From assembly GCF_058153355.1 (NCBI RefSeq), contig NZ_CM177019.1: DNA of 64,000 nt, one strand, 5' to 3'. Of the stretch, positions 1-64,000 are shown piece by piece. The notes under the pieces were generated by a model. It did not search any database. It saw only the letters and a list, made by a program, of their open reading frames with translations, and was not told the origin of the DNA. A program made the translations under genes and the position numbers. Each line of letters opens with the position of its first letter. Position 1 is the stretch's first letter.

Positions 1-56
1 TTTCACTGCGAGACAACATTCTTCCGGTCCCTGAGCTGAGGAGAGTTGCAGCAAGA

Positions 57-1196
57 TCATCCTTTTTTCCCTCCACTGTTTTTGAGCGTTAGCACCGGAC
101 GCAGTCGCGCGACAGGAATAATTAACCCAGCCTGCACCAGACATTGCACCACGCTTTCAGCCGATTTATAAGCTTGTGGCGCTTCTTCAAAGATGAGTTG
201 TTTATCGCGACAAATTACCCGGCTGCCAAGTTCAGTACGTGAGAGTTGCGTCGCCGTGTATTTCGCTGCCAGACGCCCTTTACACTCGGTGCGCCCCCAT
301 TTACGCCCTGCCCCATGCGCCAGTGAGTGAAGCGTTTTTTCGTTCGCAACAGGTTTAACCAGCCAGGAGTAATCACCGCGTGAACCGGGAATAATCACCA
401 GACCGTTGTCATCCGGCGTAGCCCCTTTACGGTGTAACCATCCTTGTTGATCGCCGATTCGACATGCGCTAACAAAGTTATGCGCCACATCCAGAACCGA
501 ATTTCCGTTGGCCTTAACTTGTTGCATTATGCGCAAAGCGATCAGCTGGCGATTAATACGCGCAAACGCCAGCGCATCATCATGTTCCGCAATATAACTT
601 AGCGCGTCGTCACTGCCTTCCGGCAAACCATGATGCGAAAACGAGGCAATATGCCGCTGTAAAATAGACTGCCCTAAACCACGCGAGCCGCTATGGACCA
701 GCAGTTGCAGATGCTGCGCATCCAGACCTGACAGTGCAAACAGTTCAGCGTCGATAATTTGATCAACTTGTTGCAGTTCTGCGAAGTGGTTTCCGCCACC
801 GATAGAGCCAAGCGCGCAGCGCCACGGATGCTGTGCAAACGCTGACGGCAGGTTTTCCTCCAGCCAGCTTTCTTCAGCAACGTCATCCAGCACAGATAAT
901 CGCTTTTCAAACTTATCGGCGTTGTATTTACGCGCGAGAATATCTGTTTGCCATAGCGCCATGCCGCAGCCGATATCATTGCCGACCAGTGCCGGGTAAA
1001 AACGGCCTACGGAGAAGAACGCTGCGCCAATCGGATAGCCGCGTCCGGGGTGTAAATCTGGCATCCCTACTACGCGTTGCATGTCGGGTAAATTTGCCGA
1101 GGTGTGTAATTGTTGGATCGCTGAACTCTCGATCCACAGGTCATCAGATGCGATGGTAAATACCGCATCGGATAAGGGACGAATATATTTGCCCAT
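57..1196 (-). CDS. RtcB-family RNA ligase paralog (full-length counterpart of the K-12 ykfJ pseudogene; prfH expected just beyond the window start)
   Basis: 379-aa ORF with RtcB-like sequence; sits downstream of yafP on the same strand, as ykfJ-prfH do in K-12. Confidence 0.75.
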   Translation of the reverse strand: MGKYIRPLSDAVFTIASDDLWIESSAIQQLHTSANLPDMQRVVGMPDLHPGRGYPIGAAFFSVGRFYPALVGNDIGCGMALWQTDILARKYNADKFEKRLSVLDDVAEESWLEENLPSAFAQHPWRCALGSIGGGNHFAELQQVDQIIDAELFALSGLDAQHLQLLVHSGSRGLGQSILQRHIASFSHHGLPEGSDDALSYIAEHDDALAFARINRQLIALRIMQQVKANGNSVLDVAHNFVSACRIGDQQGWLHRKGATPDDNGLVIIPGSRGDYSWLVKPVANEKTLHSLAHGAGRKWGRTECKGRLAAKYTATQLSRTELGSRVICRDKQLIFEEAPQAYKSAESVVQCLVQAGLIIPVARLRPVLTLKNSGGKKG

Positions 1197-1513
1197 GTAT
1201 CATTCCATTTATACTCGTCATACTTCAAGTTGCATGTACTGCGACTGCGTTCGTTCACCCCAGTCACTTACTTTAGTAAGCTCCTGGGGATTCACTCGCT
1301 TGTCGCCTTCCTGCAACTCGAATTATTTAGAGTATATAAATATAAAAATCAGGAAATGGCAGACGAATCCAGGGCAAGAAAAAAAGAATTAATCCTGGAA
1401 AGGTCTGCAAAGAGTCATTGATAAAGGATTTTTCATGATTTACCTCCTTGCAGTTTGTGGAATAAGAAAACGCGCACATATTAGGCGGGCGTTATTTTCA
1501 TTGCAAGCTGGAT

Positions 1514-1966
1514 TTAGTGTTGCGGTTTATATCGCATATGAAAATTAGTAAACCACGCTCCCCGGCATTCAACGCGCTGCTGCTTAACTGTCTGAAAACC
1601 ATAACGTTCAAAAAAGGGTTTTGCGGTTATGCTGGCGTCCACCGTAAGTTCGGATTCAGACTTAATCAAAGGTTTTAACAAAGCGCTGGCAACCCCACGG
1701 CGAGTATATTCAGGGTCAACAAATAACATATCGATATAATGCTCAATGCAGGTAATAAAGCCGACCAGTTGTGTATTAATCACCGCAACCCGCACTTGTG
1801 ATTTCGCGAGTTTCTCTTTCCATCGATGTTCATCAATCTGCGCCCAGGCGGCAATTTGTTGTGGTGAATAATGCTGACTGGCGGTCATCGTAACCGCTCT
1901 AATAAAAATAGCGCATAGTTGCTGAAAATCGCCAGGCTGATAGTTCCTTATTTGTATATTATTCAT
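1514..1966 (-). CDS. yafP: GNAT-family N-acetyltransferase YafP
   Basis: 150-aa ORF, 4-bp overlap with dinB stop; recognised as YafP by sequence and synteny. Confidence 0.85.
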
Positions 1967-3018
1967 AATCCCAGCACCAGTTGTCTTTCCATTTGCGGAT
2001 CCAGCAACGTCACATGCAGCCCCACCAGTCGCACACCGCGCCCGCCACGGCGTTCATCCCAGGTTTTACGCGCAGTGGCGATCAAGTCAGCTTTATTCAG
2101 CCGCGGCCAGACGTGTTCCTGGGTGGTTTGCTGAAAATCGTCGAACTTTAATTTCACCCCCTGGCGGGCAATCAGTAAATCAGGTTTTACCTTTGCCAGA
2201 CGACGCTCCAGTTCAGGGTAAAGCCGCTCGATGATCGCTTCACATTCAGACCAGTGATGAATATCTTCCGCCATGGTGCGTTCTACACCGACGGATTTTC
2301 GCAACCTTTCGCTGTTAACGTCGCGCTCGTCAATGCCCTGACTACGCTCCCATAAAATGCGGCCAAATTTGCCAAAGCGTTTAAGCAGAGTTACCAGATC
2401 ACACTTTTGTACATCGCCGCAGGTCCGCAGCCCCATCGCTTCCAGTTTTGCTGCCGAGACTTTGCCGACGCCGGGAATTTTTGCCAGCGGTAAGGTTTGC
2501 AGAAATGCCGGAACTTCTGCCGGCGTAATCACAAACTGACCGTTGGGTTTATTCATGTCTGAGGCGATTTTGGCGAGAAACTTGACCGGCGCAACGCCCG
2601 CAGACGCCGTCAGTTGCAGCTCGTTGAAGATCGTCTGGCGGATTTCCTGAGCGATAAGGGTCGCAGAGCCGTGGCAATGGACACTATCGGTGACGTCGAG
2701 ATAGGCTTCATCCAGTGACAGCGGCTCAATACGCGATGTGTAGCGAGAGAAGATTTCGCGGATATGATTTGACGCTTCTTTGTAGGCGTCAAAGCGCCCT
2801 GGAAGCAAGGTGAGATGCGGACACAGTTTGAGCGCCATGCCGGTTGGCATTGCGCTACGCACGCCAAATTTACGCGCGGGATAATTGGCGGTGCTGATCA
2901 CCCCCCGGCGTTCGCGGCTGCCGCCAATAGCAATAGGGATATCGCGCAGGGCGGGATTGTCGCGCATCTCCACCGCGGCGAAAAAGCAGTCCATATCCAC
3001 ATGAATGATTTTACGCAT
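1963..3018 (-). CDS. dinB: DNA polymerase IV (Y-family translesion polymerase)
   Basis: 351-aa ORF beginning [17 protein letters not shown], characteristic DinB N-terminus. Confidence 0.95.
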
Positions 3019-3088
3019 TGCTCACCTCTCAACACTGGTAAAGTATACAGTGATTTCAGAGTTTGAGAAATGCGTAAAGATTCAGCAT

Positions 3089-4012
3089 TTAACGCGTTCG
3101 CTGCGAAAGCACCTGCTGCTTATCCAGCTTTTTCACCAGCGGCTGCACCACCTTATCCCCATGCTGACCAAAATATTGATACAACGTATCGGACGCGCTT
3201 TTGGTGAGCACCATAATCTCAATGCGCCGGTTACCCGCGCTTTGCGGATTTTTGGCGTCCAGCAGCATCTGGTCCGCCATCGCGCTTACCTGCATCACTT
3301 TATCTTCCGGCATTCCGGCGTCTTCCAGCACCCGACGGGCCGAGAGCGCGCGATCGCCCGAAAGGTTCCAGTTGTTGTAGATATTGCTTTTATAGGCCAT
3401 CGCATCGGTATGCCCGGTAATAATAATTTTGTTGTCGAGCGAGTCGAACACTGGCGCGAGCTCCACCAGCAGCGTTTTAAAGAACGGCATAATCTTCGCG
3501 CTGCCGCGTTCAAACATATTGCGGTTCTGGTCATCTTTAATCAGCACGCGTAATCCCTGCGGAACAATCTCCATCTCCAGATTGGCTTCCATATGCGCAT
3601 CGCGGGCGATGGTGTTGATACTGGTCGCCAGCTCGCCAAGCTCAGTGGCGGACTTCTTCTTCAGTAGCGCCGTTTTCTCGTTGACGTCGCGCGCTTTTTT
3701 CTCCGTCTCTTCCGGCACCGCCACGGTGGCAGGTTTCGGCGGATGCGTCGGGCTGATTTTATTTAACGGCGATAGCCCGCCGCCATTGAAAATCGACTGC
3801 CCGTGCAGCGCGGCGATAATGCTTTCACGCTCGGATTTACTGACGCTGTTGACAATCCACAGCGTCATAAACAGCGCCATCATTGCCAAAGTAAAGTCGG
3901 CGAACGCCACCTTCCACGCCCCGCCGTGATGCCCGGCATGATTCTTTTTGATCTGCCGCCGGACGATGGTCGTTTTTGCCCCTCGCTCGCGGCGGTTGCC
4001 CGTCTTCCTCAT
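3089..4012 (-). CDS. lafU: Lateral flagellar stator protein, MotB-like (OmpA-type peptidoglycan-binding domain)
   Basis: MotB-like ORF with a TM segment and OmpA-like C-terminus; ATG at 4012 is 1 nt from lafT stop (the track ORF extends to 4045); intact, unlike the K-12 remnant. Confidence 0.8.
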   Translation of the reverse strand: MRKTGNRRERGAKTTIVRRQIKKNHAGHHGGAWKVAFADFTLAMMALFMTLWIVNSVSKSERESIIAALHGQSIFNGGGLSPLNKISPTHPPKPATVAVPEETEKKARDVNEKTALLKKKSATELGELATSINTIARDAHMEANLEMEIVPQGLRVLIKDDQNRNMFERGSAKIMPFFKTLLVELAPVFDSLDNKIIITGHTDAMAYKSNIYNNWNLSGDRALSARRVLEDAGMPEDKVMQVSAMADQMLLDAKNPQSAGNRRIEIMVLTKSASDTLYQYFGQHGDKVVQPLVKKLDKQQVLSQRTR

Positions 4013-21494: not shown

Positions 21495-22463
21495 TTGCAG
21501 ATTCCGCAAAGGAATAAAGACTGGAAGCCTCCTATGAGTTTTATTGAATGTTACGAACCGGAATATGTGCGCAATTTTATGGCGCAATATCCCGATTCGC
21601 CTTTATACGTCAGCAAGGTGTGGAAGAATGAGATTCGCCAGAGCCTGGCATTGACCGATATTGCCAGTTGCAAAGCAGTGCTCAACGATGCCAGGGCCTT
21701 TGAATTACAGCTTACCTATCGCCCTGTGGAAGAAAATGCCGCAGCGCTCTCCGCGCGCGATGTGATAGTCAACCAGATAATTTTGAGCACCCTCACGCTC
21801 CCCGATTTAACCCCAGAGCTTTCACTGTATGCCGTCGGGATTTTGCTCTCCCGCGCCCGTAAAATGCCGGGCAGAGACGGCGATACTCTCGCCCGGCTGA
21901 CAGCACTGCCGCAGGCGCTGGCCGATCACGCCCAAATAGGCACGTTACAGGCACAGTTCGCCCAGCTACCGCCTGTGCCACTGCTGGCGCGCCAACTGGT
22001 GACGCTGCTCGGGAGTTTTGCATTTGACTGGTCGATACTGCCAGAAAGCCCGCGCAAAAATTCGCTGCCGTTGCAGGTAACCTTGCTAACGCTGCATGAC
22101 GCCAACAGCGAAGCCCTGATGCAGCAGCAGCTACAGACACAGTGGCAAACTACCTGGCAACAGCATTTTGCCACCGCTCCGTGGATGATGCGTAACTGGC
22201 TGATTTACCGGGTTTATCACGATGTGATTGGCCAGGCAGACGGGGCGGGTTATTTCCCGCTGGTGTGTGACTTTTACCTCATCCGCACGTTAATCAGTTT
22301 ATGGACGCTGGATGATTCACCGCTGCGGCAGGAGGATATTTTCGCCCTCTTCGCGGTGTTTGAACGCTGGCGAGTGAGTGAAAATGCCGTGCTGATTCGC
22401 CAGCAAATTCAGTCATTATGTGCCGCCGACCCGCTGCTTTCAGCGTTTTCGTTGCTGCCGTGA
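21495..22463 (+). CDS. Hypothetical protein inside the Flag-2 locus
   Basis: 322-aa ORF with no motif I recognise; codon usage resembles neighbouring flagellar genes; start may be at MSFIECYEP (21534). Confidence 0.45.
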   Translation: MQIPQRNKDWKPPMSFIECYEPEYVRNFMAQYPDSPLYVSKVWKNEIRQSLALTDIASCKAVLNDARAFELQLTYRPVEENAAALSARDVIVNQIILSTLTLPDLTPELSLYAVGILLSRARKMPGRDGDTLARLTALPQALADHAQIGTLQAQFAQLPPVPLLARQLVTLLGSFAFDWSILPESPRKNSLPLQVTLLTLHDANSEALMQQQLQTQWQTTWQQHFATAPWMMRNWLIYRVYHDVIGQADGAGYFPLVCDFYLIRTLISLWTLDDSPLRQEDIFALFAVFERWRVSENAVLIRQQIQSLCAADPLLSAFSLLP

Positions 22464-22472
22464 GTCGCTCTG

Positions 22473-22604
22473 TGCGCGCTTTGCCCCTCACCCTAACCCT
22501 CTCTCCAAAGGGGCGAGGGAACCGATCGAGCACGGTGTTAAAATCGGCGCTGGTTTTCTCCCTCTCCCTGTGGGAGAGGGCCGGGGTGAGGGGCATCAGC
22601 GCGC
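22473..22604. repeat. GC-rich palindromic intergenic element with terminal inverted repeats (MITE-like)
   Basis: tgcgcgctttgcccctcaccc at the left end is the reverse complement of ggggtgaggggcatcagcgcgca at the right end; internal palindrome ccctctccctgtgggagaggg. Confidence 0.6.
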
Positions 22605-22651
22605 ACATTCAGCACCTCCATCACATTCACCCACTAACTCACCCAAACACC

Positions 22652-25096
22652 ATGCCAACACCAAGCATCATCAAAACACTCGCCACTCACCGCGAAAAAC
22701 CGTTCGTCAGCGTCGTCACGCCAACCTGGAATCGTGGCGCATTTCTGCCGTACCTGCTCTATATGTACCGCTATCAGGACTACCCGGCAGACCACCGCGA
22801 ACTGGTCATCCTCGACGACTCACCGCAAAGCCATCAACACATCATCGACCGCCTGACCAATGGCACGCCGGAAGCCTTTAACATCCGCTACATCCATCAC
22901 CCGGAAAAACTGCCGCTGGGCAAAAAACGCAATATGCTCAACGAACTGGCGAGCGGCGAATACATCCTTTGCATGGACGATGACGACTATTACCCGGCAG
23001 ATAAAATCTCTTACACCATCGGCATGATGCAAAAACACCGGGCGCTGATCTCCGGTTCCGACCAGATCCCCATCTGGTACAGCCATATCAACCGCATCTT
23101 TCAAAGCCGCAGCTTTGGCCCGCATAACATCCTCAACGGCACCTTTTGCTATCACCGTAACTACCTGAAAAAGCACCACTACGATGATGATTGCAATTTA
23201 GGCGAAGAGAAAAGTTTCACCGACAATTTCAGTGTTAACCCGCTGCAACTGCCCGGCGAGCGCACGATTTTGTGTATCTCGCACAGCCACAACACCTTTG
23301 ATAAAGACTTTATTCTCGGGGCCAGCACGCCTGTAAATGCCGAACTGAGCGATATCGTCACCGATCCGCTGCTACGCAATGCTTATCTGAGTCTGCATAA
23401 CGCCACTCATCACCAGGCGATCAACCATCAGGCGATCGATCAGATAGTTGTTGTGAATCTGGATAAACGCCCGGATCGTTTACGGCAGATCCGTGAAGAG
23501 CTGGCATTGCTGCATATTCCGCCTGAAAAAATTACCCGCCTTGCCGCCTGTGAAGATGAAAACGGCCAACGGGGACGACGCCAGTCGCACTTGCAGGCGC
23601 TGCGCCTGGCGCAACAGCACGGCTGGCAAAATTACCTGCTGCTGGAAGATGACGCGGTTATTCTCAAGCAGGAGAAACATATTCAGGTACTGAACACGCT
23701 GCTGGCGAGCCTGGCGAAAATTCCCTGGGAGGTGATGAGCCTTGGTGGCGAAATTTCGCAAGGAACGATGCTGAAAAGTTTGCCGGGGCTGGTACACGCG
23801 CAGGACTGCCGCAAAGTGTGTGCTTATCTGGTGAACAGCCGCTACTACCCACAACTGGCGCAGCAGATGAGTAACGATGAGCACTCGCTGGAAGACGGCT
23901 GGCAGCCACTGCTGCGCACCGACAAATGGCTGGCCTGTTACCCGAGCCTTAGTTATCAGCGACCGGGCTTTAGTGATATCGAGAAAAAAGCGACTGATAA
24001 CATTAACCACTACTTCAATAAGTTACCCGTAGCCACCAAGCCATCCACATTACCCATCGCCGACACCATCGGCTTTTTTATGGAAACCTCCTTCCACTAC
24101 GCGCTCTATCGCCCAATCATCACCGCCCTACAGGCGCAGGGGCAGAGTTGCACGCTGGTGATCAACGATCGCGTGTTTAAACCATTTTTGGGTGAAATGC
24201 TGGAAACACTGAAAAGCATCGACGATCCACAGCTTAAAGGTATGCGCTTGTCTGAGATGCAGGAGCACAGTCAGCGGGTGAAATGCCTGGTCAGCCCCTA
24301 CCACACGCCCGCGCTCAATGGCATTTCACCCGTGAACGTTCGCGCCATGTACGGCTTAGCCAAAGAGACGTGGAACCACGCCGACTGGAACCGTTTTTAT
24401 CAGCGCATTTTGTGTTACAGCCACTACAGCCAGCAGGCACTAAAACATTTCGGTAGCGCAAAAGTGGTCGGCAACCCGCGCTTCGACGCCTGGCATAACG
24501 GCACGTTTGACCGCGCCCTGCCGGAAAATATCCAACCCGATTCCCGTAAACCTACGGTGCTCTACGCCCCCACGTTTGGCGCATTAAGCTCCCTGCCCCA
24601 CTGGGCAGAAAAATTGGGGCGCTTGAGCGGTAATGTAAACCTGATTTGCAAACTGCACCACGGCACCAGCTCGCGCCCGGAAGAAGCCGCATCGCTGACC
24701 CTGGCACGCAGGCATTTAAAACAGCGCACCGACTCCGTCCGCCACACGCTGGCGCTGCTGGCAAAGGCCGATTACGTGCTCACCGATAACAGCGGCTTTA
24801 TTTTCGATGCTATCCACGTTGATAAGCGGGTGATCCTGCTCGACTTTCCGGGCATGACGGAACTGCTCGACGGTGAGAAAAGTTATTCCACACCGGAGAG
24901 CGCCGACCAGCGAATCCGCGAAATATTACCGGTGGCTCATGATATGGCTGAGCTGCGTTACTTATTGTCAGAGGCGTTTGACTGGGGGGCGGAACAGGCG
25001 CGGCTTACGGAGATTCGCCATCACTATTGTGACGCGTTTATGGATGGCAAGGCGGGAGAACGGGCGGCGATGGCGATTGTGGAGGCATTGGGTTAA
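22652..25096 (+). CDS. Multi-domain glycosyltransferase: GT2-like N-terminal domain, GT25-like central domain, TagF-like CDP-glycerol glycerophosphotransferase C-terminal domain
   Basis: ATG at 22652 follows the palindromic element; GT-A motifs (VSVVTPTWNRG, DDDD), central VVVNLDKRPDR...LLEDDAVIL, C-terminal VLYAPTFG...VLTDNSGFIFDAI; the track ORF from 22418 runs through the repeat. Confidence 0.65.
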   Translation: MPTPSIIKTLATHREKPFVSVVTPTWNRGAFLPYLLYMYRYQDYPADHRELVILDDSPQSHQHIIDRLTNGTPEAFNIRYIHHPEKLPLGKKRNMLNELASGEYILCMDDDDYYPADKISYTIGMMQKHRALISGSDQIPIWYSHINRIFQSRSFGPHNILNGTFCYHRNYLKKHHYDDDCNLGEEKSFTDNFSVNPLQLPGERTILCISHSHNTFDKDFILGASTPVNAELSDIVTDPLLRNAYLSLHNATHHQAINHQAIDQIVVVNLDKRPDRLRQIREELALLHIPPEKITRLAACEDENGQRGRRQSHLQALRLAQQHGWQNYLLLEDDAVILKQEKHIQVLNTLLASLAKIPWEVMSLGGEISQGTMLKSLPGLVHAQDCRKVCAYLVNSRYYPQLAQQMSNDEHSLEDGWQPLLRTDKWLACYPSLSYQRPGFSDIEKKATDNINHYFNKLPVATKPSTLPIADTIGFFMETSFHYALYRPIITALQAQGQSCTLVINDRVFKPFLGEMLETLKSIDDPQLKGMRLSEMQEHSQRVKCLVSPYHTPALNGISPVNVRAMYGLAKETWNHADWNRFYQRILCYSHYSQQALKHFGSAKVVGNPRFDAWHNGTFDRALPENIQPDSRKPTVLYAPTFGALSSLPHWAEKLGRLSGNVNLICKLHHGTSSRPEEAASLTLARRHLKQRTDSVRHTLALLAKADYVLTDNSGFIFDAIHVDKRVILLDFPGMTELLDGEKSYSTPESADQRIREILPVAHDMAELRYLLSEAFDWGAEQARLTEIRHHYCDAFMDGKAGERAAMAIVEALG

Positions 25097-59408: not shown

Positions 59409-60660
59409 CGTCTACCAGAAGCCAGTTAAAACGCTCCTCCAGTGAGGAGGCCTCCCATTCCTGATTGAAATGGCAAATAGCTCGCTGGCAACTACTGGCA
59501 AAATGTTTACTTCCTTTCCAGTTATTTATTGTGTCAGAATGACACTGACTGTCGTGAACAGAGTCATCATCCACCAGTCTCCATCCCATCCAGTGTGGAA
59601 AATCTCCGTCACTGTATTTTTTTATATTCGGATCAGCCAGATTTACCACTCCATGCCCCCCCGGATAATTTACTGTTCGCCAGAGCGGTGCATTGGATGG
59701 CGTCAATACCTCATGTTCACTATTAATCACCCGACCAAAGCGTAATAACTCAAATCCGGAACTGGGTCTCTGCGGATATAACTTCATTGCTGTTTTATAA
59801 AGATTATACTCATATTTATCACCGTCTTTATTAATCAATGCCTCGCCTACAGTTTCATATACATACTCATCTATCTCACCCTCACTCACTTCTTTTTTCA
59901 TTCTCGTCACCATCTCACAGTTTCCAGTATCAAATTTCATAGTAACGAACAACGGAAACATGCTGGTATAAACCGGTGACAAACCAGTGGTTTCAGCACT
60001 GTTATTTTCTGGTATCTTATCGTAGAAAATTGTGTCTACTGGTAAGTAGAAATGTATATCACCATACACAACTTCAGTTCTACCATCTTTTGTCAAATCA
60101 GTTTCTGGTTCCAGTTCTTCTCTACCTGTCAGCTTCTTTGTGTTTTCATCATCACTGAATATCTGGAAATGAAACTCTTTATCGCCATCTGCCAGGCCTG
60201 GTGTCCCTAACACATCCTTTCTGTATATCTTACTTCCCTGAGTCACTCTCCCCTCAATCTCATTCAGGTGCATATACACCGACCAGTATGTAACCTTCCC
60301 GGATTCGCCGTCACCTATTTCCGTTTCGTGTTTTATTACTACACATCCATCATCTGTTGGGCCGTTATAATTAAGCGGTGCTGAATCTCGTTTTTCAACC
60401 GATGAAGGCGTTCGGACATAAACAACTGTTCCGTCTGCAATTGCTCTGATTTTATCCTCTGCATTCGTGTACGAAATATGAATGCCGCCATGCCAGGAGC
60501 CTCGTAAATTTATAGGGTAATTTCTGAACTGATCAACTGGCATCATCCAGTCAATCCATGACTCATCAATCCCACTATTATTGGGATGAGTTAAAAAAGG
60601 AGGGCTAATTATCATTTTTAGTGTACCTTTATTAAAAAAGATAATGTAATGCTGGTACAT
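59359..60660 (-). CDS. Putative T6SS-associated protein with peptidase M23-like motifs
   Basis: 433-aa ORF directly after vgrG; WHGGIHIS and EFHFQIF segments loosely resemble M23 metal-binding motifs; assignment tentative. Confidence 0.35.
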   Translation of the reverse strand: MYQHYIIFFNKGTLKMIISPPFLTHPNNSGIDESWIDWMMPVDQFRNYPINLRGSWHGGIHISYTNAEDKIRAIADGTVVYVRTPSSVEKRDSAPLNYNGPTDDGCVVIKHETEIGDGESGKVTYWSVYMHLNEIEGRVTQGSKIYRKDVLGTPGLADGDKEFHFQIFSDDENTKKLTGREELEPETDLTKDGRTEVVYGDIHFYLPVDTIFYDKIPENNSAETTGLSPVYTSMFPLFVTMKFDTGNCEMVTRMKKEVSEGEIDEYVYETVGEALINKDGDKYEYNLYKTAMKLYPQRPSSGFELLRFGRVINSEHEVLTPSNAPLWRTVNYPGGHGVVNLADPNIKKYSDGDFPHWMGWRLVDDDSVHDSQCHSDTINNWKGSKHFASSCQRAICHFNQEWEASSLEERFNWLLVDGEDEFSRKTDEKARLG

Positions 60661-60681
60661 TATCTGTTTAAATAGTTTTTA

Positions 60682-62718
60682 TTACGAAAATATGAAGTTC
60701 GCAGTCGTATCGTCATCAGCCTCTGGCACTTTCAGCGCCGCCGGTTGCAGCGTCGGCACGGGTGTCCCCGGACTTCCCCCACCGTTCAGGTTTATCTTCG
60801 GCCCCACGATATCCACGCCACCAGAATGAACGACAACGAACGAGCCGCCCACCTTCAGGGTGATTTTACCGCCGCTCTCCAGTACGATTTCATCCCGGAC
60901 CTTCATTCCCAGCGCGCCGGTAATTTTCCTCGCCAGGTCGCCTTTCACCTCCAGACTGTGTTTCCCCTCCACGAGGCTAATGTGGTTTCCTGTCGTCTTG
61001 TGCTCCTGCTTCCCTTCCACCGTCACCTTTCGGTCATTTTTTACATACAGACCGTCATCGTGGCTGACGTTCACCCGCCGGTCGTTCGTCACCTTCAGCG
61101 TCTGGTCATTGCGCACCGTGATGCTCCGGTTGTGGGCCACCGTGATGGTCTGGTCGTGCCCCCCGGCATTCTCTTTCCCCACCGTCACCGTCTGGCCCAG
61201 CCCCACGGTGATTTTCTGGTTGTTCCCGATGGTCTCCGTGTGGTCATGCTTCACGTCCGTTGTCCGGTCGTTGAGCACCTCCGTGTCCATGTTCTTCTGC
61301 GCGTGGATATAGACCTGCTCATTACTGGTGGCGTCCTCGAACCGCAATTCGTTAAAGCCGCTTCCTTTATAGGTCTTCGACCGTATCGTCATCTGCGTCT
61401 TCGTGCCCGGTAAATCCCCCGGTGAACGGTTGTCCTCATGGTAGGTGCGTCCCGTGACGATGGGCTGGTCCGGGTCCCCGTTCAGAAAGTCCACTATCAC
61501 TTCCTGACCCACACGCGGTATCGCCAGATTACCGAACCCCGCTCCCGCCCACGCCTGCGACACCCGTATCCAGCATGAACTCTCCTCCGTCATCCCGTGA
61601 TAACGGTCCCAGTGAAACTTCACCCGCACCCGTCCATGTTCGTCGCAGAATATCTCCTCGCCCTTCGGCCCGGTCACGATGGCACTCTGCGGGCCGTCCA
61701 CCTTCGGCTTCGGTAGCGGCGCGTGACGCCACGTCCTGTCCGCCGGTATCACCTCAAACTGGTTACTCAGCGTCGTTCCTTCACCGTGACTGCCGTGCAG
61801 CGCCTGCGGCTGTTCCCCCAGCAGCGTGCTTCCCACAACCTGCCATTCACGGTTCAGCGTCTCCGCACCACTCCGCCAGCCTTCCGTCTGGTAACGCGCA
61901 AAGTCCTGCCCGTGCTGCTCATCCTTGAAACGCCCCGGATAATCAAATATCTCGTACTGCGTTCCCTGTCCGTTCAGGCTCTCCCCGTCATGGCTGTAGT
62001 ACCCCGGCCACCCCGGCACTTTAAACGTATAATCCTGCGTCTCCACCGACGCCACGCTTATCTGCGCACGGTAACGAAACTCGCTGATGTACTCCGTCTT
62101 TCCCCCGGTCGTCGTGTTCGGGTTAAACGCCAGCGTTCCCATTCCCGTCAGCCCCGCCACGTCATCACACACCGCCAGCTTCTGCTCCGGCCCTTCCTGA
62201 CCGCAGCGCTCATAAAAGAAGATACCTTCCTCCGCCCACAGCCGGGTCAGGAATGCCAGGTCGCTCTCCCCGTACTGCACGCAGAACTCCCGCGCCGGGT
62301 GCGCCTCATAGAACAGCGGCATCCACGCCGTCACCCCGTTCTCTCTCAGAAGCTGTGCTGATATCGTCTGAATGTCCTGCTGCTGGAAGATACGGAAGTT
62401 CTGCCGTAACCCTGCCCGCCACAGCGGCGGGCTGATGCTCAGGGAATAACGCATCTGCCAGTCGTTGTTCTCACCGAGCTGCACCTCCGTCACGATACCG
62501 CTGACGTAACGCTGCGGGATATCACCCTGCCAGACCGTCAGCACCGCGCTCTTCTCCAGAAAATCTTCTGCCGTCAGGTCAGACAGTCCGCTGGCGATAT
62601 CCACATCCAGGATGAACGGTGTGCAGTGGTGCTGGTACAGACGGAAGCTCACCACCGCCGTCGCCATCTCCACAATACCGTCCACCGACAGCGTGAAACG
62701 TAATCCTTCTGAGGACAT
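60682..62718 (-). CDS. vgrG: Type VI secretion spike protein VgrG
   Basis: 678-aa ORF with gp27/gp5-like VgrG sequence and C-terminal beta-helix repeats. Confidence 0.9.
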   Translation of the reverse strand: MSSEGLRFTLSVDGIVEMATAVVSFRLYQHHCTPFILDVDIASGLSDLTAEDFLEKSAVLTVWQGDIPQRYVSGIVTEVQLGENNDWQMRYSLSISPPLWRAGLRQNFRIFQQQDIQTISAQLLRENGVTAWMPLFYEAHPAREFCVQYGESDLAFLTRLWAEEGIFFYERCGQEGPEQKLAVCDDVAGLTGMGTLAFNPNTTTGGKTEYISEFRYRAQISVASVETQDYTFKVPGWPGYYSHDGESLNGQGTQYEIFDYPGRFKDEQHGQDFARYQTEGWRSGAETLNREWQVVGSTLLGEQPQALHGSHGEGTTLSNQFEVIPADRTWRHAPLPKPKVDGPQSAIVTGPKGEEIFCDEHGRVRVKFHWDRYHGMTEESSCWIRVSQAWAGAGFGNLAIPRVGQEVIVDFLNGDPDQPIVTGRTYHEDNRSPGDLPGTKTQMTIRSKTYKGSGFNELRFEDATSNEQVYIHAQKNMDTEVLNDRTTDVKHDHTETIGNNQKITVGLGQTVTVGKENAGGHDQTITVAHNRSITVRNDQTLKVTNDRRVNVSHDDGLYVKNDRKVTVEGKQEHKTTGNHISLVEGKHSLEVKGDLARKITGALGMKVRDEIVLESGGKITLKVGGSFVVVHSGGVDIVGPKINLNGGGSPGTPVPTLQPAALKVPEADDDTTANFIFS

Positions 62719-62934
62719 ATGACCTCCCTTGATTCACTTACAGAACACTGGTTGTCTACTGACCATGCAGCAGAGGGTGCCAGTACAGCGTTACGCTCAT
62801 ATTCAGGTACGCTACCGCCCGGGTTCCCGGCATCCACCATCTCCCTCATGAAAGCGTAACTCCTTACTGACACTCATTTTTTACACGTACAAAAACAACA
62901 TCCTGCACTAAGGCAGGATGTTGTTGACTCAGAT

Positions 62935-63453
62935 TTATGCTTCCAGCGGTGCACGCCAGTCATCGGCACCAGAAGTACCGGATTTGATGTGCTCCCACTC
63001 AACCTTACGGTAGGCCAGTGATACTGCGAGCAATTGCGTAAACTCACGCTGTGCAGGGTCCTGGCAGTGCGGCATATGCAGGTTCATGTCCACAATCGTC
63101 GCGTCAGTAAGACGTGTGGTGAAGTAGTGCTCCTGCTTGCCTTCAACAGAGGTACGCCACCAGTGCAGCTCCACTTTCGGCAGCATTTCACCGGAGGCCA
63201 GCGCGTTGTACAGCAGCGGAACGGCTTTGTTCAGCGCCACGGTGAAAATGAACGGTTTGTGAGCACGCTGCCCGGAAGGCTGACCAGACTGCGGATCGGT
63301 TGGAACAGTAACGTTATGCAGAAACTCCTGCACCAGCATTTCATCTTCGTGTCCCTGCACGTAGATATTGCCGACAGAATCTGCGGTGAAAGCACCGGCA
63401 GTGATGTTCCCCTGGGTCTGACCTGTAATTGAAATGTAACATGGGGTTGGCAT
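62935..63453 (-). CDS. hcp: Type VI secretion tube protein Hcp
   Basis: 172-aa ORF with Hcp-family sequence directly upstream of vgrG. Confidence 0.9.
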   Translation of the reverse strand: MPTPCYISITGQTQGNITAGAFTADSVGNIYVQGHEDEMLVQEFLHNVTVPTDPQSGQPSGQRAHKPFIFTVALNKAVPLLYNALASGEMLPKVELHWWRTSVEGKQEHYFTTRLTDATIVDMNLHMPHCQDPAQREFTQLLAVSLAYRKVEWEHIKSGTSGADDWRAPLEA

Positions 63454-64000
63454 TTATGAACTCCTTGTGAAATTATCAACTGCTGTTTTACGAACAACCC
63501 GTCGTTAATCCCCGACAGGTTAGAGTGTGATGCGGCTCACATCAGGAACCACACCCTTTTCTTTATTCGAGTTACAGGCACACGTAATTAGCACCTACCG
63601 AAAAACTCTTTTATGGTGTTTAAATATATTTTTAGTCAATTTCAGAACACGGTCACATAAGCTAAAAATATATCAACATCAACAGTAGAATTATCCATAA
63701 CGTATCCTCACCCCCATAAAAACCTACAATTTCGTCAAAAATCAATTATTACAACGCTTACTTCACCATCGTTCCGGCACGCAATTAAGATATTCCTTAA
63801 AGGAATTTCTTATGATGTATTGCTAGCAATTAATTAATTTATAAAACCATACATAAAACTTATTAATCAATTTAATAAACACATATAAATCAATGTGTTA
63901 TGGCACTTTATTGGCCGTAAAATTATATTCACCAAGTCTATAAATACCAAATTGATTTCACTAACATGTATTAATAATGAAGGATACATCTCTTTCAAAA

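Follow-up and report, generated by a model that had tools for sequence, protein, structure and literature searches.

A palindromic element in a Flag-2 locus is a probable passenger pair of inverted BoxC repeats

Introduction

What is a long, GC-rich quasi-palindrome doing between two genes of a Flag-2 locus? The element in question spans 137 bp (positions 22471-22607) of a 64,000-nucleotide stretch of contig NZ_CM177019.1 (NCBI RefSeq assembly GCF_058153355.1), here called the window, and is intergenic, lying between the stop codon of an upstream methylase gene (22463) and the ATG of a glycosyltransferase gene (22652). It was first noticed from the letters of the DNA. That original prediction placed it, rightly, between a 322-amino-acid (aa) open reading frame (ORF) and the start of the glycosyltransferase gene, took it for a miniature inverted-repeat transposable element (MITE) or a structured RNA, and proposed that it may act as a terminator or attenuator. 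The family was left unnamed, although the element belongs to an already known kind of repeat, variously called BoxC, PIT, and TMECO, of which copies are present at this same site in hundreds of public genomes. We consider it probable that the element, two BoxC units in inverted orientation, is a passenger that acts mainly at the DNA level and has no dedicated regulatory role.

Results

Two BoxC units in inverted orientation

Holder et al. (2015; PMC4666352) equated their TMECO motif with BoxC (Bergler et al. 1992) and with the "potential intrastrand triplex" (PIT) elements (Hoyne et al. 2000; Hoyne and Maher 2002). BoxC is also listed among the Escherichia coli stem-loop families (Petrillo et al. 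2008). The TMECO pattern reads 5'-CCCTCNCCC N3-6 GGGNGAGGG N3 GGGNGAGGG, and E. coli K-12 has 23 such units, which are divided into type A, with a TTA loop, and type B, with a CCG loop. Two inverted units occur together at five K-12 sites, where every pair consists of one A and one B (PMC4666352).

Both arms of the element conform to this description. The right arm is a canonical type-B unit (CCG loop, CCCTCTCCCTGTGGGAGAGGGCCGGGGTGAGGG; 22560-22592, plus strand) that fits the TMECO pattern exactly, its 33 bases being the first 33 of the 34-base K-12 TMECO no. 1 and no. 4. The left arm is a degenerate type-A unit (TTA loop, CCCTCGCCCCTTTGGAGAGAGGGTTAGGGTGAGGG; 22485-22519, minus strand) that fits save for one base (GAG for GGG); it failed a strict triplex detector and was found by a relaxed pattern. 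The A and B units stand on opposite strands, in keeping with the K-12 pairing rule. The resemblance extends to the flanks. The left outer inverted repeat (TGTGCGCGCT; 22471-22480, plus strand) forms the outer flank of the type-A unit, and a similar flank is found on K-12 units; it is complementary at 10 of 10 positions to the right outer repeat (AGCGCGCACA; 22598-22607, plus strand), which lies within the type-B unit flank CATCAGCGCGCAC, identical in the K-12 hrpB-mrcB pair. That pair has ACCGATCGAGCAC in common with the element as well, and unit flanks are common to the K-12 copies at fabI, hrpB-mrcB, and lldD-trmL. The left arm with its flank aligns with K-12 positions 1,351,203-1,351,241, the BoxC beside fabI/envM where the repeat was first described. 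We identify the element as a BoxC pair because its arms fit the TMECO pattern, its A and B units are paired in inverted orientation, and its flanks recur in K-12 copies.

The layout of the pair was compared with that of the five K-12 pairs. In these, a BoxC unit of about 56 bp is made up of the core plus flanks such as CATCAGCGCGCAC and ACCGATCGAGCAC. Two layouts were found, which are circular permutations of one another: the "outward" layout, with the GGGTGAGGG ends outermost, in the window element (22471-22607) and at K-12 lldD-trmL, and the "inward" layout in the other four K-12 pairs (hrpB-mrcB, fepB-entC, ygfF-gcvP, and alx-sstT). Kaplan et al. (2016, PMC5100583) reported the G-rich cores GGGAGAGGGTTAGGGTGAGGG and GGGAGAGGGCCGGGGTGAGGG separately, as candidate G-quadruplexes named HPG1 and HPG2.

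As first described, the sequence of the element is correct to within 1 or 2 bases. Its terminal repeats had been called perfect-looking; positions 22473-22493 and 22582-22605 do pair, but a TT versus GAT bulge, across which a further 12 bp per arm (GCCCCTCACCC...) pair beyond the 10-bp outer repeat, makes the arms near-perfect rather than perfect. The internal palindrome that had been pointed out is present in the right arm as a perfect 9-bp palindrome, CCCTCTCCC-TGT-GGGAGAGGG (22560-22580). An imperfect counterpart in the left arm (22498-22519; -13.7 kcal/mol) had been overlooked. The central spacer (22520-22559), which is locus-specific, holds a weak apical hairpin (22533-22552) followed by GTTTTCT. 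The GC content of the element is 63.5%, versus 50.9% for the window.

No second copy of the element was found within the window. Across complete E. coli genomes, by contrast, a 148-nt query matched in 5337 of 5426, at a median of 13 places each, and 99.9% of the matches were chromosomal; the element thus belongs to a repeat that is multi-copy in E. coli.

An allelic series at one site

In total, 1277 of the 5426 E. coli genomes carry this part of the locus, and about 730 of them have the element at the site in any orientation (732 and 721 by two BLAST counts). Flipped elements still align in megablast, at about 84% identity, so BLAST coverage is unfit for counting orientations; allele states were read from individual sequences, and the number of flipped genomes is a lower bound drawn from the alleles read. 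The standard allele is that of the window, RM9975, and ws5-3, together with ATCC 8739 by BLAST identity only. The whole element, including its outer flanks, is flipped in R32_14_1F and QA-1986 630, and the spacer of the latter is the reverse complement of the RM9975 spacer except for one base. In MFDS1022581, the interior alone is flipped and the outer flanks are unflipped, and 2020CK-00188 has a hybrid flip with a B-type flank on both ends. The EC1515 group carries a 73-bp tandem duplication of the spacer and A unit. In 05-3629, the element has collapsed to a 72-bp perfect hairpin; this allele was read directly, and 14 further records share its BLAST profile.

The element is also absent from the same site in other Flag-2 loci, as the original prediction had suggested checking. 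These 527 of the 1277 genomes have an unrelated 46-nt intergenic region, and the adjoining codons differ too, so that no clean empty site, that is, a filled and an empty site differing by the element alone, was found. The 46-nt region contains a small hairpin of its own (GGCCGG-TTTTC-CCGGCC, then TTAT) that may be a weak terminator or stabilizer.

The three flips have three different breakpoint patterns within the arms, which argues for recombination or template switching between the arms and not for re-insertion or a site-specific recombinase. From these sequences, we infer that the allelic series probably arose by arm-to-arm recombination or template switching. The 72-bp collapse is the "palindrome effect" that Holder et al. 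reported, together with instability, at TMECO loci (PMC4666352). At this site, the element behaves as a recombinogenic palindrome. Extrusion of a hairpin or cruciform would promote recombination or template switching between the arms, with in-situ inversion, duplication, collapse, and loss as the visible outcomes. An intrastrand triplex would possibly contribute: the G-rich strand of K-12 units with the B-arm sequence forms a purine-motif triplex in vitro by circular dichroism and nuclear magnetic resonance, whereas dimethyl sulfate footprinting for a triplex in vivo was negative (PMC4666352). PIT elements block DNA polymerase in vitro (Hoyne and Maher 2002, as summarized in PMC4666352).

The occurrence of both orientations at one site in closely related strains, in a locus concerned with flagellar surface modification, could instead be read as a programmed, reversible switch whose flips change the expression of flagellin-modifying genes (phase variation). 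We regard this as the least credible of the alternatives. A scan found no promoter-like site inside the element, there is no recombinase gene nearby, the orientation appears fixed within each assembly, and the breakpoints differ among lineages, which speaks against a site-specific system. As a promoter candidate, a sigma-28-like GCCGAT in the spacer was dropped on reading, having no matching -35 element.

As for the MITE assignment, the element is small and non-coding and has terminal inverted repeats and many copies. It was nonetheless rejected as a MITE in the strict sense on the grounds of target-site duplication and of filled and empty sites: the flanks (...GTCGCTC / element / TTCAGCA...) contain no direct repeat, and no target-site duplication is visible at the K-12 BoxC pairs either. 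What holds of the proposed MITE or structured RNA is therefore a multi-copy, palindromic, non-coding sequence that would form a stable RNA hairpin if transcribed.

Folding, transcription signals, and constraint

The folding check that had been proposed for the element predicts a very stable structure. The whole element folds as a single hairpin on both strands, at -97.3 and -94.3 kcal/mol as RNA (z = -10.3 and -12.0) and at -51.7 kcal/mol as DNA (z = -8.6), and none of 200 shuffled sequences folded as well. When folded in a 301-nt context, the hairpin was kept and the A/C-rich region at the glycosyltransferase start was left unpaired. No Rfam 15 covariance model matched positions 22471-22607, even at E <= 1.

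A hairpin this rich in GC might be expected of an intrinsic terminator or attenuator between the two genes, and a terminator role within operons has been speculated for HPG-type motifs (Kaplan et al. 2016, PMC5100583). The main hairpin, with a stem far longer than is typical, is not followed by a U-run on either strand or in either orientation (the downstream sequence on the plus strand is CACAUUCAGCACC), and the terminator scan made no call on it. The sole terminator-like call was the weak apical hairpin of the spacer, which is followed by GUUUUCU but reaches merely -9.8 kcal/mol. PIT elements, moreover, showed neither promoter nor terminator activity in published assays and left RNA polymerase unaffected (Hoyne and Maher 2002, as cited in PMC4666352). 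With the U-tract missing and those assays negative, the terminator or attenuator claim is unsupported, and we consider such a function very improbable.

The element could act in mRNA in another way. Like REP/BIME and ERIC sequences, it could set the relative levels of the lafV and glycosyltransferase cistrons, either by being cut by RNase III or by blocking 3' exonucleases. The stability of the sense-strand hairpin, its persistence in context beside an unpaired glycosyltransferase start, the location of the genes on the same strand with short gaps upstream, and conservation above that of third codon positions all favor such a role. Against it, 527 genomes do without the element, both orientations and the collapsed form occur, no compensatory changes between the arms were seen among the alleles read, RNA polymerase was unaffected by PIT elements in the work cited above, and the role presupposes co-transcription of the two genes. 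On balance, we find this role unlikely, if less so than termination.

Conservation weighs against the element being a mere passenger. Compared with RM9975 or ws5-3, the window is 88% identical in the methylase gene and 92-94% identical in the glycosyltransferase gene, and third codon positions of these flanking genes have diverged by 13-23%. The element differs from the same-site E. coli copies at only 4-7 of 137 positions (95-97% identical). It drifts more slowly than third codon positions, which weakens the view of it as a neutral passenger and suggests constraint, correction between the arms, conversion by other copies, or recent exchange. A 35-nt leader beside the element is also fairly conserved, and the intergenic region as a whole may have a regulatory role; the operon speculation of Kaplan et al. 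also counts against a mere passenger. We nevertheless think that the element has no dedicated regulatory role here, because more than 500 genomes lack it and because both orientations and the collapsed form persist.

The reading that we prefer is thus of a gene-less passenger, which would be carried between the genes of a LafV-type methylase and a GT2 glycosyltransferase. Should these genes be co-transcribed, its RNA hairpin of -97 kcal/mol would be at most a processing site or a 3'-exonuclease barrier.

Two ORFs that span the element were judged spurious: one on the plus strand (22418-25096; an apparent 892 aa in the glycosyltransferase frame, which is open through the element) and one on the minus strand (22294-22608; 104 aa, starting at 22608, just after GGAGGTG). 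Both are probably spurious because they are unconserved across alleles, which differ by an 11-nt indel, and because PGAP places the glycosyltransferase start at 22652.

BoxC pairs beyond E. coli

A scan of species-representative genomes for outward pairs yielded at least 120 stretches. Among the matches listed are Pseudomonas, Enterobacter, Burkholderiales, Rhizobiales, Verrucomicrobia, Planctomycetes (Gemmataceae), Cyanobacteria, Chloroflexi, Nitrospirales, Thermodesulfobacteriota, and one Peregrinibacteria genome. Eighteen of the stretches come from a single metagenome-assembled genome, Pseudomonas sp. EaCA-3, in which the whole outward pair of about 115 bp is conserved, including the spacer. 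Since the spacer is conserved with it, the outward pair is itself a unit of propagation. Its inner flank, GGGGACCGTTCGG, resembles the E. coli inner flank. In Pseudomonas sp. EaCA-3 and P. nitroreducens, the outward pair often adjoins an apparent Pseudomonas repetitive extragenic palindromic (REP) sequence (...TTGCTCCTAC).

As for single units, Enterobacter asburiae LF7a has 143, and none are reported in Salmonella. The single-unit pattern was found on at least 120 IMG/VR contigs (viral or proviral), some of which also carry a DUF559 gene. These matches contrast with a published statement that the motif is missing from phages and plasmids. Two instances within apparent coding sequence were also noted. 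BoxC-type units are seemingly translated in frame in a 1684-aa ORF stretch, possibly more than one gene, that contains PSPQPSPASGRGSELPSPARGEGA..., and a 125-bp BoxC-like match with 83% identity lies under an annotated phnP gene in one E. coli strain (NZ_CP083585.1, 4346832-4346956), where it could be either an intragenic copy or an annotation overlap.

DUF559 genes are bracketed by BoxC-type units

Protein families recurring within 400 nt of units were sought in 240 loci. Housekeeping synteny aside, no family was spread more widely than that of a small protein, DUF559 (PF04480), with a restriction-endonuclease/Vsr fold. A DUF559 ORF was flanked by BoxC pairs in eight taxonomically distant loci, which include Devosia, two purple-sulfur gammaproteobacteria, Enterobacter, Burkholderiales, and two viral contigs; the Burkholderiales locus has a variant flanking repeat (CCCCATCCC / CCTTCCCCC...GGGGGAAGG...GGGATGGGG). 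In E. coli K-12, the last codons of the DUF559 gene ycjD fall within a degenerate unit, and the original envM/fabI BoxC is located 168 nt downstream.

To avoid selection bias, the association was also approached from the protein side, with a set of 31 genes taken irrespective of repeats: six homologues selected for long contigs only and 25 strong homologues taken from viral contigs by peptide patterns. In all six long-contig genes, a unit in the G-rich orientation ends about 0 to 10 nt before the ATG, and a unit in the C-rich orientation encodes the C terminus of the protein (PHPNPLP...) and the stop codon. Each of the six is wedged singly between unrelated genes, for example, between ubiD and ubiA or between metF and metH. 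With a generic detector (C-stem, loop, G-stem, loop, mirror G-stem), 24 of the 31 genes had a unit on at least one side, upstream or downstream, and 14 had one on both. Of 276 control windows drawn from these loci at a distance of 400 nt or more from the DUF559 gene, none scored; of 3000 in the 64-kb window and the E. coli flag-2 loci, 43 did, consistent with overlap of the element copies in four sequences.

The sequence of the units differs by locus, and the three-segment architecture is kept, as in CCTTCTCCC / GGGAGAAGG / GGATGAGGG, CCTCCCCC / GGGGGAGG / GGAGGGGG, and TCTCCCCC / GGGGGAGA / AGAGGGGG. DUF559 genes and units are therefore co-located in a tight, oriented, and co-varying manner. 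At six loci with asymmetric variants, the third segment is a mirror image of the second and not a repeat of it, as a purine-motif triplex would require; this relation is suggestive only, because the detector itself imposed the mirror rule. A general test of mirror against direct third segments did not discriminate, because the common motif is nearly palindromic, and only the clearly asymmetric variants are informative.

These observations allow an extension, rather than an opponent, of the passenger reading. A pan-bacterial selfish element, whose sole gene encodes a DUF559 nuclease that recognizes the triplex-forming unit, may have the BoxC-type units as its terminal inverted repeats. The Flag-2 element and other gene-less pairs would then be MITE-like or solo derivatives still subject to the nuclease in trans; inward pairs would be internally deleted copies, and outward pairs either end-to-end junctions or solo flanking modules. 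We put this forward tentatively, as a proposal that falls a little short of an even chance. Besides the two screens and their controls, it is favored by ycjD, which overlaps a degenerate unit near the original BoxC, by units that vary with the locus under a constant architecture, and by the single placement of the genes between unrelated housekeeping genes. The DUF559 profile also gives a match to PDB entry 3hrl (E = 2e-39) and a weak one (E = 6e-4) to the homing endonuclease I-Bth0305I (3r3p); Vsr, DUF559, and I-Bth0305I have been grouped together (Steczkiewicz et al. 2012).

Several points tell against the proposal. Co-location proves neither mobility nor enzymatic action, and neither a target duplication nor an empty/filled pair was found. 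No unit was detected at seven of the 31 genes, the six genes taken from assemblies are closely related to a single protein first found beside the repeats, and the 64-kb window contains no DUF559 gene. The units might instead be expression signals of the gene (ribosome-binding site, terminator) or its preferred landing sites. DUF559 proteins, for all that their genes are bracketed by inverted BoxC-type units as the parent of a MITE would be, are not known to be transposases, and no classical transposase is known for the BoxC family. Holder et al. found no mobility genes near TMECO sites (PMC4666352). Our literature search found no report linking DUF559 or YcjD to BoxC-type repeats, and nothing pertinent on BoxC as a MITE or as an RSA/IRU.

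Flag-2 neighborhood

The gene upstream of the element (21534-22463, plus strand) encodes a FliB-like (LafV-type) lysine-N-methylase of 309 aa from its ATG (the ORF has 322 aa; PF27117, FliB_C), annotated "lysine-N-methylase" in RefSeq. The downstream gene (22652-25096, plus strand) encodes a GT2-family glycosyltransferase of 814 aa (PF00535, Glycos_transf_2), and the exact protein is present in two NCBI assemblies. Its A/C-rich leader (22608-22651, plus strand) has no obvious Shine-Dalgarno sequence and is predicted to be unpaired; its first 9-11 bases, to the right of the element, differ between strains. RefSeq relatives annotate the neighbors as flgA, flgM, flgN, lysine-N-methylase, and glycosyltransferase. 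De Maayer et al. (2020, PMC6993521) locate LafV methylases and GT2 glycosyltransferases in variable region 1 (VR1) of flag-2 loci, a cargo-gene hotspot, and the element would be a passenger within it. The window region is 92-95% identical to E. coli, so that its source is an Escherichia that departs somewhat from typical E. coli. At the far end of the window (60001-64000) are type VI secretion genes (hcp, vgrG), for which four E. coli records are 95-99% identical and others less than 90%.

Discussion

Taken as it was first given, the finding matters little, being a known repeat at a known polymorphic spot, and the element should be annotated neither as a terminator nor as a new MITE. The locus is of more use as a compact allelic series, comprising the standard form, three kinds of flip, an expansion, a collapse, and absence, that displays the evolution of an inverted BoxC pair and could be used as a natural assay of palindrome-driven rearrangement.

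The bracketing of DUF559 genes links two loose ends, the BoxC family, which has been without an origin or function since 1992, and DUF559 (E. coli YcjD), which has no known role. A selfish DUF559 element, if real, would explain the spread of BoxC across phyla as well as the rearrangements at this site, and it would give YcjD a function and the BoxC family an origin. The association needs independent confirmation, and the link is testable with one purified protein and a few oligonucleotides.

The element can be placed among known systems by what it shares with each. With rho-independent terminators, it shares a GC-rich intergenic stem-loop, but it has a stem of about 55 pairs and no U-tract, and assays of its family were negative. 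Bacterial MITEs (ERIC/IRU, Correia/NEMIS, and RU-1 to RU-3) resemble it in being about 100-170 bp long with terminal inverted repeats, in forming a long RNA hairpin, in lying between genes in many copies, and in occurring now and then in frame inside genes; the element differs in having no target-site duplication, no clean empty site, and no known parent insertion sequence with a classical transposase.

REP sequences and their composites, the bacterial interspersed mosaic elements (BIMEs) and the REPINs with their REP-associated tyrosine transposases (RAYTs), are, like BoxC, short GC-rich palindromic units of two types that occur singly or in alternation and form long hairpins when paired. Should the DUF559 link hold, BoxC would also share with the REPIN/RAYT system a single-copy gene that has units on either side. 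Only the alternating two-type mosaic layout is analogous, however: the gene beside BoxC units is DUF559 and not RAYT, the RAYT proteins have an HUH Y1 transposase fold whereas DUF559 has a PD-(D/E)XK (Vsr-like) fold, and the mobility of BoxC is putative. Compared by reading, the arms are also unlike the E. coli REP consensus.

Free-standing homing endonucleases of the Vsr-like (EDxHD) type, such as I-Bth0305I, belong to the same fold family as DUF559 and are likewise small single genes between unrelated genes; I-Bth0305I is intron-encoded in a phage, whereas DUF559 is bracketed by inverted triplex-type repeats. HPG1 and HPG2 have G-rich cores identical to those of the element, but the work on them covers single cores, for which a regulatory or terminator role is considered possible, rather than the 137-bp pair and draws no link to BoxC (PMC5100583).

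From BoxC/PIT/TMECO itself, the element shows no essential difference. The window copy is outward with a slightly decayed A arm, and most K-12 pairs are inward; in-situ inversion and tandem expansion at one locus, which the available part of PMC4666352 does not mention, are seen here. In unit sequence, loop types, inverted A+B pairing, multi-copy intergenic occurrence, and instability, including collapse of the palindrome, the element and the family as described there are alike.

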